Assembly (NCBI RefSeq): GCF_003018255.1 | Contig: NZ_CP027441.1 | DNA from: Escherichia coli | GTDB taxonomy: Bacteria; Pseudomonadota; Gammaproteobacteria; Enterobacterales; Enterobacteriaceae | Direction: 5' to 3' (one strand) | DNA length: 64,000 nt | Shown here: positions 54,001 to 60,000 of the stretch, piece after piece | How positions within the stretch are numbered: the stretch's first letter is position 1 | Layout: each line of letters begins with the position of its first letter | Position numbers: made by a program

Positions 54001-57000
54001 TCCGTGAACGGTTTTCCTGCTGCCTCAAGCTCTGCACGGGCCTGATTCAGTGCTGCCGGGTTCCGCTTCGCTTTCTAGCTATCTGTCCTTCCGTTCTGGC
54101 AATATCCGCCACCTGACTGCCTATATCACTGATAAGCCCCACTGTCTGCAGACGCCTCTGCTCCTTCTCCTTGTCAAATATCGGGCTGATACTGTCATTA
54201 GCGTGCGCAGGATCACGGCTGAGGTCTGCCGGATTCTGCTTCTGATTGTCCCTGTCCCGGATGGTGATAGTGCCTTCTGCCACTGCGGCCTGAGTCGTTC
54301 CTTCCGCATGTCCGCTGTAACTTCCGGCTGATATCATGCCACCCGGCATGTTACCCTGAAATTTATCCCCGAAACTGCCACCACCGCTCAGACTGATCCG
54401 GGGGTTGAGGCTCAGTGGAACAATAACCGCCGTTAAGCGGTCATTTTAAATAGCCAAAAATCAACCAGCCAATTTACATCGTGAATCTGCGTTCTTGGCT
54501 ATCTGTTTTGGGGGGGCCAAGTTGGCTTCACTCATCCTAGCCGTTTGCGGAGCAAAAGACGTTGTTGATCTCAACAGATTGATTTACCTGTTATTGACCA
54601 TTCAATTGAACCGCTTAACCGCCTTTTTAGTTCCACTACTCCCCAACCCCCTATTTACATGAATGCAGCAATTCAGCAGCTCAGGCGTGAGGGGTATCCG
54701 GTCATGGATTCAGACGTTGAGAAACTGTCACCATTGCAGTGCGGGCATATTAATATGCAGGGGCGCTATTCATTTACAGTGCCAGAATCGGTCAGTAAGG
54801 GTGAGCTGAGAGCGTTCAATGAATAGATGTAATTTACTGATTAATAAATAATTGGCTATTTTAATTAACCTCTTAACGGAGTTTACTGTTCCATTGCTCC
54901 CCCTCCCCAACAGCAAACTGTTATTGTATGAAAAATAGCCTTAGCGTGGGATATTTAATGAGATGGTCACTCCCTCCTTCCAGGTACTATGCAGAGGACA
55001 GGCTTTCATTCGGAGAACTATCATGGAAAACATTGCGCTCATTGGTATCGATCTGGGTAAAAACTCTTTTCATATTCATTGCCAGGATCGTCGCGGGAAG
55101 GCTATTTACCGTAAAAAATTTACCCGGTCAAAGTTGATCGAATTTTTGGCGACATGTCCTGCTACAACCATCGCAATGGAAGCCTGTGGTGGTTCTCACT
55201 TTATGGCCCGTAAGCTGGAAGAATTGGGACATTTCCCAAAGCTGATATCACCACACATTCGTTAAAAGCAACAAAAATGATTTCGTCGATGCCGAGGCCA
55301 TCTGTGAAGCAGCATCGCGTCCATCAATGCGTTTTGTGCAACCCCGAACGGAATCTCAGCAGGCAATGCGGGCTCTGCATCGTGTTCGAGAATCCTTGGT
55401 TCAGGATAAGGTAAAAACAACTAATCAGATGCATGCTTTTTTGCTGGAATTTGGTATCAGCGTTCCACGAGGTTCTGCAGTTATTAGTCGGCTGAGCACT
55501 ATTCTTGAGGACAATAATTTACCTCTTTATCTCAGCCAGTTATTACTGAAACTACAACAACATTATCACTATCTTGTTGAGCAGATTAAAGAGCAGGAAT
55601 CCCAGTTGAAACGAAAGCTGAACGAAGATGAAGTAGGTCAACGTTTACTGAGTATTCCCTGTGTCGGAACGCTAACTGCAAGTACTATTTCAACTGAGAT
55701 TGGCGACGGGAAGCAGTATGCCAGTAGCCGAGACTTTGCCGCCGCAACAGGGTTGGTACCTCGACAATACAGCACGGGGGGGGGGCGGACAACATTGTTG
55801 GGCATCAGCAAGCGAGGCAACAAGAAGATTCGAACCTTGCTGGTTCAGTGCGCCAGAGTATTTATACAAAAACTGGAACACCAGTCAGGCAGGTTGGCCG
55901 ACTGGGTCCGGGAGTTACTGTGCCGGAAAAGTAACTTTGTCGTGACTTGCGCTCTGGCAAACAAGCTGGCCAGAATAGCCTGGGCACTAACAACACGGCA
56001 GCAAACTTACGAAGCATAGTGAGAGTTATATCAGTTTAAACAATCACTCATCTGGTTTTGCGGATACTGATTATTGATGATATGAACGGCCCACCGGCCT
56101 GTTGAGGAACCTGTGAAACGGAAAGGCTCATTGAAGCCGTATATTTTCTTGAGGTTCATCAGGCGCGGAACTCATCGAGGCGCGGGAATAAAATCCCATT
56201 CAGACGCCGGATAGATTCAAGCAAGCCCACTTATCGTCAAAATCGGTGTTGCAAAAACGGGAGTGACCATAGATTCCGTTTTCCAAGCGGCCCCCTCCTA
56301 TAGCCATCGCAATATCACGCCCTGAAGCACCACCAGAAACAGAATCTAATTCATTTAGAGTCAGAGTTCTCATATGATCTCCTTTTTATCTTATCGGATA
56401 TTGAATAATAATTATCACCAACAAAGTAACATATTGCAGACATTAATGCAGAGAAGCAAAATGTATGCATGGATAAAAAGTCCTTTCCTCTAAAAACACA
56501 ATCATATATAGCTAATGCAATATATATTGCGGTGGCATTTATTATAAATGCAAATAACAAATCTAATTTTGTTCTTTTTCTATCCATTACTTTCTATCCC
56601 ATTACCACACAAACACTAACGATAATGATTATCGTTCACATGGTCAAGAGTGAAGGGTAGGCGGCCCTCACCCCCCTATAAGGGGTCCGCTTGGAAAACG
56701 GATTTTCCCACGTCAAGAGAATTGAGTTGAACGAGTGGTTACATCCAGGCCAGCTAACTCACTGAACGTAAAGGCTGTACGAAATGTTCCGACCGTCCGA
56801 TAACCATTTGGCTTACTTCCGTACATTTCCTTGCGTAGATGTACAGAATTGTACGATTTCGGACACCAAAACCGCTGTTGTCCCGCCATTCTGGCGATTC
56901 CTGAAAGTCCTTTGGCTAAAAAATAGTCTTAACGTGGTTTATTTTCCGAATTCCAAACTGACCCCTTTAATGCTTCTTTCGTGAATCCGTTAATAAACTC

Positions 57001-60000
57001 ACGACCAACACCTCCGATAGCATCATAAACAAAATTAGGAATGTTATTCGCATTTAATACTTTATCTACACCAACTGGCGCATACTTCCCAAACGCCCCA
57101 CCCAGACCAGCACCAATACCGGCCCGGCTAGTGAAGCTGTATTTGGACCATCAGTAAAGAATGCCCACCCATTGCGATACCTGTGTTTGCAAGGACACCA
57201 CGACCGGGAGCCATCATGCCTGTTGTAAATGAGGTCGCGCTTCCCAGATAGTCTCACGACTTATTCGCATTCTGCGGCTGGTTCAAATCATAGAACTGAT
57301 AACCACTATTGGCCGCCAGTCCAAGAAGCCCACCACCAAGAACTTTACCTGCTGACGCAGCAGGCCCCAGATACCATGCTCCGGCAATCACTACACCATC
57401 CTGATATCCATCCACGATCACTTTCGTGATATTGATGCTGTCCGGCATATCACCTTTCGCTATCTTATCCAGCCCAGCCTGGGTTTGTCCCAGTGTCAGA
57501 TTATTGCCCACCGCGTACTTGTTCCATGATGTAGCCGCAGCAGCATTGCTTTCAAAACCATCACCGAAGCTGAGCGCGTTATTCTCAACGACATAGCTAT
57601 CGACAAAAAACCATATTAATTCTTTTGGAAAAAAGAAAATAAGGTATCCATATAACAACACCAAATATTCCACTCACTAATAATCTGATATTATCTGAAT
57701 CCAGCTGTACGTCAAAAAGAATAGCCGGTAATAAAGTAAGATAGAGAGCAATAATCAGTCCTGTTGCATAATAAGCGATCATGGCTTTTCGAGTTCCTTT
57801 TTTGCGTCTGAAAAACAACCACGTTGCATAAAGGGAAACAATGAATCCACATATCAGCAACGCAAATGCCCCCATAGCGTAATAAGATAAAAAGCCAGTT
57901 TCATTGAAATAATTGAATGCGGTTATGGTAAAACTGTAAAGTTCAATAGCACTACCAATAACACCCAAGATAAGTCCCAGAGCAGGAAGATATAATAGTC
58001 CATTAATTTTACTTAACTCCTCATTTTCACAGGCATCACACAATCCCGACTCTTTGTTTGCTTCTGACATTTTACATTTTATACATTCCATTTTTTATTC
58101 CATTATTCATTGCGTTACGATAATGTTTAGTTTTTTTAAACATCCCCCACCACATATATGGGGATTGTTGCAAATCACACTTAGGATCTGATGGTGTTTT
58201 CTTACGGGAGTTAAACTTATCTATTAAATTAAATACTATTGTAGCTAATGTTATTGCTGTTCCTGCTATAAAACCAAAAACGATAGCTCTTTTAAACTGA
58301 TTCACTGGAAAATAAAACCCATCACCTTTAAAAAAATAAAAGATTGAAACCACTCCTCCCAGAAATAGTAACATGACTATAGATGATAAACAGCTATAAA
58401 GGAACAATACCACATAACTATATAGTTGTTTCATTTTTTCTTATCCTCTGACGAACCTTTCGGTTTATTGAGTTCTTTAATAAATCCAGATGAAAACTCT
58501 GAAGCACCCCCTCCCCAATAATCATAAACAAACCCAGGAATTTCCTTTCCAGTAACAGAGTTTACAATTCCAGGTGCATATTCCCCAAATAATCCACCGG
58601 CCCATGCACCTGCGGCAGCACCTCCAATAGCTCCTGCATTCGGTCCATCAGTAAAAAATGCACTGCCCATCGCAATCCTACGTTTTGTCCAACAGTTCTT
58701 CCCGGTGCAAGCATACCAGTAATGCCTGCACTGGCACTGCTTTTCCAGTCCCAGTTTTTGTTCTCATTACCCGGCTGACTCAGATCAAACCACTGGTATG
58801 TTCCGTTAGCTATCTCAGCAATAACTCCACCACCGATCACTTTCCCGACGGACGCTGCAGGCCCCAGATACCAGGCACCTGCAATCAATACGCCATCTTT
58901 ATAACCATCAACTATAACTTTGCTTATATTGGCTCCTTCAGGTAACTCACCTTTGGCAATTTTATCCAGTCCTGCCTGCTTCTGTTCCGGGGTGAGATTA
59001 TTGGCATCAGCATACTGATTCCATGAGGAAACCGCCTGACCATAACTCACCATTCCTGATGGCAGACTGAGCGCATTAGTAGTTGACTGCCTCAACTTCA
59101 GGGTGACTTCTGCCGTTACTTTTTTAACCCCTCCCCCAACGCCTAAACGACACTTTCGTTTTCTGCAGTGCCTCATAGGAAGTATGAGCTTTAAAGCTAG
59201 TGTAATCAAAACCCACTGACACTACCATTCTGACAAACATGCCGGTGGATGATGCCCGACTTTTCCATCATGATGCCTGTTTAGTCGGGCGTGCACCGTA
59301 CGGATGACATCTTTCACCTGGCTAGGTTCATACAACGCATCGTAAGATTTGTACGCATCAACCTGCAACTCTCACCTATATTCTGCCAGATGATGTTGTG
59401 AATCTTCGAGGGAGAGCTGCTTTATCATCTGCGTATTCTGTTCTATTCGATCACGGATTGGTCGTTACTCACCGATCACTTTCACGGTAATACGCATCTG
59501 TGGCTATCATCCCCACCACCTCGCCGGTGGCTGCATCCGCGGCACAGGCAAGAACGTTATTTCCCTGTGCCACCAGTGCGGCATTCACCACGGCATGAGC
59601 AGCCACATTTTCAGCTTTATTCACTTCACCGGTAAACGAGGCTGTGGTCATGGAGTACATTCATTGCAGTGTATTGAGTAACTCAGCCATTACATGAGAC
59701 GCATCCTGTTTATAAGCTAATTCCCAACGGGTCTGCCAGTTTTCCGGACGACCGGCACTTTCCCATTCAGACAAGGCAAGTGCATTAATAATTTCCAACT
59801 CGAACCATATTTGCTGGTAACTCTCTTTACTTTCCTCATTTTTGAACAATTCATTCGACTGCACCAATTCTTCCGCATAGCTGACGAATTTTGCAAAACT
59901 AGCAACATCGTTCAGCGAATTCTGTGCATATTCACAAATAATATATTTCTTACTTGTCACCATATTTAACTGTTACAACCTTTCCAGATGAATTTGTAAC

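Follow-up and report, generated by a model that had tools for sequence, protein, structure and literature searches.

A large family of alpha-helical ionophore toxins (type 10) of contact-dependent inhibition (CDI) systems was described by Halvorsen et al. in 2024 (PLoS Genet, PMC11630599). These toxins join an N-terminal entry domain to a C-terminal ionophore domain of five helices, and the glycine zipper alone is common to the whole family; the identity between groups is only about 20 to 39%. The six groups are defined by the entry domain; group 3 depends on AcrB and has its entry domain in common with Ntox25 toxins. The corresponding immunity proteins, CdiI, are two-helix hairpins of 72 to 100 residues that act on the cognate toxin only. 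Experiments with group 3 representatives demonstrated that they depolarize cells, need AcrB and are neutralized by the cognate CdiI only (PMC11630599). Orphan cdiA-CT/cdiI modules (CT, C-terminal toxin region) are known downstream of cdiBAI loci from the work of Poole et al. in 2011 (PLoS Genet, PMC3150448), and the orphan CdiA-CTo10 of Escherichia coli EC869 depolarizes (PMC7858069). Here, we describe two orphan modules in region 56900-59700 (2,801 bp) of a window of 64,000 nucleotides from E. coli (the whole stretch analyzed; assembly GCF_003018255.1, contig NZ_CP027441.1). They are very probably known toxin/immunity modules of the group 3 CDI ionophore family that are undergoing progressive pseudogenization. 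The toxin family, its CdiI proteins and the orphan-cassette arrangement have already been published; what the locus presents is ordinary gene decay and no new system, and the understanding of CDI is unchanged by it. In the related plasmids of Shiga toxin-producing E. coli (STEC), it offers a small datable example of orphan module erosion, the toxin going first and the immunity gene after.

The two modules lie on the minus strand, at 56966-57589 (module 1, identified by homology to intact orphans) and at 58431-59078 (module 2, identified by homology to intact CdiA C-termini), which is where the original prediction had placed two paralogous toxins with a shared core. This core comprises VDGY(K/Q)DGV(L/V)IAGAWYLGPAAS and AFFTDGPN, followed in both modules by a Gly/Ala ladder. 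Once the frames were repaired, the two proteins were 59.6% identical over 203 aa (E = 1.5e-70), which is far beyond chance and shows that the paralogy is real. The ladder runs through G145-G149-G153-G157-G161-G165 in module 2 and G156-G160-G164-G168 in module 1. Among 59 homologues, G161 was invariant and G157 and G165 were at least 90% conserved; when homologues with 20 to 26% identity were added, G157 and G161 were still at least 90% conserved. A search of a large protein database returned 274 relatives of the toxin in Escherichia, Salmonella, Shimwellia, Edwardsiella, Pantoea, Erwinia, Enterobacter and other genera, nearly all of them annotated as "adhesin," "VENN motif pre-toxin domain-containing protein" or "filamentous hemagglutinin." When a profile was searched against 1.84 billion representative proteins, 208 clusters were obtained (E ≤ 0.001); many of them matched positions 4-86 only, showing that the N-terminal entry domain is modular.

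The lesions of both modules were located by DNA alignment to intact relatives in other E. coli genomes. Module 2 corresponds base for base to the 3' end of the full-length cdiA of E. coli EC100, save one missing A. This 1-nt deletion (AA to A; GGAATT to GGATT), at about 58676/58677, separates the entry domain and first helices from the glycine-zipper helices. Deletion aside, the module is 99% identical to the intact CdiA C-terminus of EC100 and 98% identical to the CT of CdiA in strain MSI001 (locus L007), which is paired with the CdiI WP_073488148.1. Its identity to the CdiA-CT of strain 94-3024 (plasmid pO104_H21) is 62.6 to 65% over 206 to 214 aa (E = 1e-68 to 2e-89), and its residues 5-46 show a 59% match to an Edwardsiella CdiA carrying Ntox25. 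The homology begins exactly at the NALS codons, and the VENN motif is replaced by STTN. In four sister plasmids, the module is uninterrupted and annotated as a 221-aa "adhesin."

Module 1 retains its VENN codons (57578-57589) and carries more damage. A nonsense codon (TGG to TGA) occupies 57254-57256, and two 1-nt deletions, both G4 to G3, are found at 57164-57166 and 57123-57125. In addition, the homology to the intact orphan of E. coli OkiPb01677 (locus L012) ends at about 56966, a 3' truncation by which the last ~13 codons and the cognate cdiI have disappeared. The repaired protein is 98% identical to the OkiPb01677 orphan, which is followed by an 82-aa cdiI, 86% identical to the orphan of E. 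coli 1303, whose CdiI is WP_001222075.1, and 56.7% identical to the 94-3024 CdiA-CT. The two toxin frames are thus broken at different points, as had been noticed from the sequence alone, and all the lesions fall in or next to the intervals 57050-57260 and 58560-58700 that had been singled out for re-sequencing.

Membership of group 3 was established through the CdiI accessions and the CdiA-CT of strain 94-3024, which is itself listed as group 3 in PMC11630599. The S1 Table of that study gives WP_001222075.1 (MOD1-EC6378) and WP_073488148.1 (PLATE1_D7) as group 3 CdiI proteins. The former is encoded after an intact orphan of the module 1 type in E. coli 1303 and STEC1588, and the latter after the CdiA of strain MSI001. 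Like the published group 3 toxins, both modules show homology along the full CT, the layout of an entry domain followed by an ionophore domain, and a GxxxG ladder; the CdiI proteins that go with such CTs are two-helix membrane proteins of 82 to 86 aa whose ATG overlaps the toxin stop. By homology, the two modules are group 3 alpha-helical CDI ionophores, for which ionophore activity and AcrB dependence would be expected from the published representatives (PMC11630599). The original proposal of orphan, membrane-active, ionophore-type toxins with a glycine zipper thus holds, and the repaired toxins align to these group 3 relatives with the ladder kept in both modules. A predicted structure of moderate confidence is compatible with this fold: AlphaFold2, given a CT-linker-CdiI fusion with paired and remote homologues, returned an all-helical model with five helices in the CT (77-100, 111-123, 129-144, 148-176 and 183-203; predicted local distance difference test [pLDDT] scores of about 67 to 81) and two long helices in CdiI (pLDDT of about 80). 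For module 1, neither the C-terminal tail nor the missing cdiI of 82 aa (type WP_033885166.1) was found under that accession in the PMC11630599 table, and this type may be an unlisted sub-group.

Several points weigh against this assignment. The toxin is covered by no Pfam or NCBIfam model: the sole Pfam match of the repaired module 2 CT is a weak one to Gly-zipper_Omp (PF13488; i-E = 0.0039, 17.5 bits, residues 132-170), and NCBIfam gave no meaningful match to the two repaired toxins, the two CdiI types or the resident CT and CdiI (described below). The confidence of the fusion model is moderate (mean pLDDT of 65.6), while the CT modeled alone with 59 close homologues was uninformative (pLDDT of 49). 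A Foldseek comparison of the fusion model with the PDB gave nothing below E = 3 and hence no solved structural relative. The exact sub-group is deduced from matching accessions and the row order of the S1 Table, and it is from homology that the repaired toxins would be expected to depolarize membranes and to need AcrB. Finally, the CdiI of module 2 occurs here in an extended form of 120 aa, which may or may not still protect.

By analogy with the intact relatives, a functional toxin of this kind would be a CT of ~215 residues forming the C-terminal tip of a full-length CdiA and delivered into a neighboring cell (PMC11630599). Its N-terminal domain would then use the inner-membrane protein AcrB for entry, and its C-terminal five-helix glycine-zipper domain would insert in the inner membrane and dissipate the membrane potential, while the producer would be spared by a small two-helix membrane CdiI that binds the ionophore domain (PMC11630599). 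Neither cassette of the window would be deployable in this way, as both are without a secretion/stick region and without a credible start codon. Both copies are predicted to be inert, possible residual immunity from the module 2 cdiI aside.

The immunity gene of module 2 is the open reading frame (ORF) at 58072-58434 (minus strand, 120 codons), recognized by homology, position and hydropathy. Its ATG overlaps the toxin stop codon, and the Kyte-Doolittle profile of the ORF shows two hydrophobic segments. The native codons 1-85 correspond to 58180-58434; a stop-loss (TGA to TGT) at 58177 has added 35 read-through codons in the former intergenic spacer. The first 85 aa are identical to WP_000812110.1 of sister plasmids, where the 85-aa downstream gene encodes either this protein or WP_000812109.1, and 97.6% identical to WP_073488148.1. 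The three CdiI types of 85, 84 and 82 aa are paralogues with 42 to 57% identity, which fits the published diversification of cognate pairs. In a tblastn search of the window, this was the only cdiI-like gene, and none remained for module 1. The ORF is, by its homology, the genuine cdiI of module 2, and neutralization of the toxin would be expected on the same grounds. The original prediction had proposed two polytopic membrane ORFs downstream of the toxins as immunity genes. Its choice of 58072-58434 was correct, although "polytopic" overstates what is a two-helix hairpin of 85 aa lengthened to 120; its second candidate, a DUF2569 ORF at 57597-58091, is disfavored by synteny and by the published requirements of group 3 immunity (PMC11630599), as detailed below. 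The positions were likewise only partly right: both ORFs are downstream of module 2, but they stand upstream of module 1, which has no immunity gene downstream.

Compared with the intact group 3 systems, the CTs of the window are detached from a full-length CdiA and both inactivated, and the remaining cdiI bears a stop-loss extension. The arrangement resembles that of the orphans of Poole et al. (PMC3150448): the modules lie downstream of cdiA and cdiI, and each is a CT fragment without translation-initiation signals. Module 2 is followed by its own cdiI, which module 1 has lost; the VENN start is kept in module 1, whereas module 2 is without it. CdiA homology does not reach upstream of either module. 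The CdiI of module 2 also resembles CdiIo10 in having two transmembrane (TM) segments. The published orphans, however, were functional when grafted onto CdiA (PMC3150448, PMC7858069), while the modules described here are frameshifted or truncated and do not form a functional pair; moreover, CdiA-CTo10 of EC869 belongs to the SecY-dependent group 2 and not to group 3. With Ntox25 toxins (PF15530), such as the CdiA2-CT of EC93, the family has a homologous AcrB-dependent entry domain in common (PMC11630599); the toxic domain of Ntox25 is a predicted beta-barrel and that of the modules an alpha-helical glycine-zipper domain. PF15530 gave no Pfam match in the repaired CT. One relative named "polymorphic toxin type 25 domain-containing protein" in RefSeq (locus L002, 7367-7888) is a chimera: it begins with an N-terminal fragment of an Ntox25 CT and continues with an ionophore of the module 2 type, of which the C-terminal two-thirds are present. 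A degraded cdiI comes after it. The chimera illustrates how recombination scrambles such arrays and can mislead annotation.

The course of the decay was obtained by a column-by-column comparison of the window with related plasmids. Region 56900-59700 was matched at 100%, lesions included, in six large (~174 kb) STEC plasmids, which came from US patients, Japanese patients and Okinawan cattle and from separate laboratories; it was 99.5 to 99.9% identical in four further, sister plasmids (2014C-3338, 2014C-3307, p65-4 and pRM10042-2). Both deletions of module 1 are common to all ten plasmids, and its nonsense codon is present in all of them but pRM10042-2. The module 2 deletion (58677) and the cdiI stop-loss (58177) are restricted to the sub-lineage of the window (six assemblies) and absent in the four sisters. 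Such a stepwise gain of lesions along the plasmid lineage points to relaxed selection and pseudogenization, and of the three explanations first offered for the broken frames, recent decay proved to be the right one. Programmed frameshifting was considered and ruled out, as the frame is uninterrupted in the sister plasmids.

The alternative that survives best accepts that the toxins are dead and holds that the module 2 cdiI, possibly together with DUF2569, is maintained by selection as protection against neighbors armed with group 3 ionophores. Orphan cdiI genes were expressed and protective in other strains (PMC3150448), all 85 native codons of the module 2 cdiI are in frame, DUF2569 is intact, and an intact colicin V immunity gene (cvi) stands beside a truncated cvaC on the same plasmid. 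The cdiI is indeed the sole part of the array that may still work and could protect against neighbors deploying that toxin. Nevertheless, its stop-loss and the toxin frameshift mark precisely the same sub-lineage, a pattern suggestive of relaxed selection on both; its product carries a 35-residue tail that might affect its function; and the immunity gene of module 1 was lost outright. We regard selection for immunity as a tentative possibility, with the balance somewhat against it.

It had also been suggested that these are silent cassettes kept as a recombination reservoir, whose CTs could replace that of the resident cdiA by homologous recombination in the VENN region and so give the strain a new toxin. 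This corresponds to the general model for orphan modules, in which recombination occurs at the VENN-encoding sequence (PMC3150448), and arrays do show shuffling at this point, since EC100, 1303 and the window have different toxins after the same DUF2569/VENN junction. A third orphan of the window, at 53103-54349, even keeps 301 bp (54099-54399) that are 98% identical to the resident cdiA (61214-61514), so that it could recombine with it, unlike modules 1 and 2. For the latter two, the shared sequence at VENN is very short (20 bp for module 1 and 13 to 18 bp for module 2), module 2 has lost its VENN codons, and the pre-toxin sequence upstream of module 2 is of another cdiA class, with 420 bp of unrelated DNA lying between the two. 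Both CTs bear inactivating lesions that accumulate along the lineage, and loading the CT of module 1, which has no cdiI, would be suicidal or useless. The two cassettes would therefore be poor exchange substrates, useless or harmful if loaded, and a working reservoir is very unlikely compared with progressive pseudogenization of the modules.

Sequencing or assembly errors, by which the real frames would be intact and the breaks homopolymer miscalls, would be in line with the position of all three 1-nt deletions in short homopolymer runs (AA, GGGG and GGGG), yet this explanation, which the original prediction had also offered, can practically be dismissed: the 2,801 bp are the same in six independent assemblies (human isolates of the Centers for Disease Control and Prevention, Japanese human isolates and Okinawan cattle isolates), sister plasmids from the same projects have an intact module 2 and 85-aa cdiI, so that the module 2 lesions must be recent and real, and a nonsense codon, a stop-loss and a 3' truncation are not homopolymer artifacts. 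Equally hard to credit is another toxin class (pore-forming colicins, Ntox25 barrel toxins, or bacteriocins or microcins that are secreted), as might be suspected from the colicin V immunity gene and truncated cvaC 400 bp away and from the one relative named for type 25, because the intact versions are C-termini of 3,000-aa CdiA proteins that begin right after VENN, the Pfam scan contained no colicin, microcin or Ntox25 domain, the "Ntox25" relative is the chimera with a module-2-type C-terminus, and the truncation junction separates the cvi/cvaC block from module 1.

Between the module 2 cdiI and module 1, the minus strand encodes a DUF2569 membrane protein of 164 aa (57597-58091; Pfam PF10754, 6.7e-34) with an N-terminal CxxC...CxxC motif and four hydrophobic segments (Kyte-Doolittle). 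It is rare in E. coli, being found in 33 of 5,426 complete genomes, always with at least 98.8% identity, and every E. coli locus inspected has a cdiI of the module 2 type, or what remains of one, before it. As an immunity gene of the modules, it was rejected as a requirement by synteny: Salmonella (locus L015) and E. coli RM11911 and MSI001 (loci L004 and L007) carry the same CT/cdiI pair without DUF2569. Group 3 immunity also needs the small two-TM CdiI alone (PMC11630599). Across genera, the homologues are always 164 aa long, with identities from 88% down to 49%, and in six of eight genera (Escherichia, Shimwellia, Edwardsiella, Pantoea, Tatumella and Mangrovibacter) they lie at or next to cdi loci, in three of these six directly after a small two-TM CdiI-like gene. 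The gene stands at 4001-4495 or 3501-3995 in loci L017, L018, L020, L021 and L023. In Shimwellia, it comes after the cdiI of a group 3 CdiA; in Edwardsiella, it is preceded by an ionophore-like CT, a 97-aa two-TM gene and an orphan fragment; and in Pantoea ananatis, it directly follows a 90-aa two-TM ORF. It ends an orphan array in Tatumella and is upstream of cdiB in Mangrovibacter, whereas the copies of Cedecea and of a Salmonella plasmid have no cdi gene in their vicinity. No paper on the function of this 164-aa subfamily was found in the literature searched. We treat DUF2569 as a co-transferred neighbor and find it unlikely that it is more than a passenger, that is, a conserved accessory of ionophore-carrying CDI loci. 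If it were, it might act as a second, broader-spectrum protective membrane factor or assist the membrane insertion of CdiI or the ionophore. This recurrent neighbor is the only loose end of the locus perhaps worth an experiment.

The array forms the end of a CDI locus, carried by an STEC megaplasmid with subAB, as shown by the six identical plasmids, in which cdiA is annotated upstream. On an identical plasmid, the RefSeq order on the minus strand starts with a full-length cdiA, two small hypothetical genes and a frameshifted "adhesin." Next come the genes for a hypothetical protein of 120 aa, the DUF2569 protein and a hypothetical protein of 135 aa, then the intact cvi with the truncated cvaC at its side, an IS110 element, a Tn3 fragment, a second frameshifted gene named "VENN motif pre-toxin" and subAB. 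The gain for annotation is modest: RefSeq calls these genes "adhesin" or "hypothetical protein," and since neither Pfam nor NCBIfam has a model for the ionophore domain, such cassettes are easily taken for novel toxins. The resident full-length cdiA, which RefSeq names "contact-dependent inhibition toxin CdiA," is represented by its 3' part at 59950-64000 on the minus strand and runs past the edge of the window; its VENN codons are at 60634-60645. Its stop is overlapped by the ORF of the resident cdiI (59661-59963, minus strand, 100 aa), which is cognate by position and for which the sister plasmids give only the name "hypothetical protein." The resident CdiA-CT (59950-60645) has a short Pfam DUF4258 match near its C-terminus (5.5e-6) and received no specific toxin name from the NCBI annotation pipeline (PGAP); this match, together with the soluble-looking CdiI, suggests a nuclease-type toxin. 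Next to the resident cdiI, a degenerate pre-toxin fragment of 155 bp from another cdiA class (59499-59653, minus strand) was detected by blastn, with 84 to 89% identity to the pre-VENN region of cdiA in loci L002 and L004 and a further match within the window at 53685-53796. The ~420 bp between this fragment and module 2 (59079-59498) match sister plasmids only. A promoter and terminator scan of 56900-60100 gave fewer promoter-like sites than shuffled sequence and was thus uninformative.

On the other side of the array, unrelated DNA (56679-56965) stands in place of the 3' end and cdiI of module 1, where the homology to locus L012 stops at about 56966, and part of it (56681-56885) has matches in 2,433 enterobacterial plasmid records. 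This stretch starts GGGGTCCGCTTGGAAAACGG...ACGTCAAG, and 56679-56716 presumably resembles a Tn3-family terminal inverted repeat. It is followed at 56200-56587 (minus strand) by the intact cvi (colicin V immunity, 78 aa) and the cvaC truncated after ~26 native residues, so that the plasmid offers a further instance of a dead toxin whose neighboring immunity gene has been retained. The cvi/cvaC block, with the IS110 and Tn3 fragments, stands between the array and the third orphan (53103-54349, minus strand), which consists of a frameshifted VENN pre-toxin gene and then a "CPCC family cysteine-rich protein." Further orphan CDI fragments form a second cluster ~17 kb away on the minus strand (39858-40772). 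It contains a Gly-rich C-terminal toxin fragment interrupted by an IS3-type transposase ORF (40452-40772), an immunity-like ORF of 82 aa with two TM segments (40235-40483) and a truncated CT bearing VENN (39858-40217), and these fragments resemble the ionophore-like orphans of EC100 and Tatumella.

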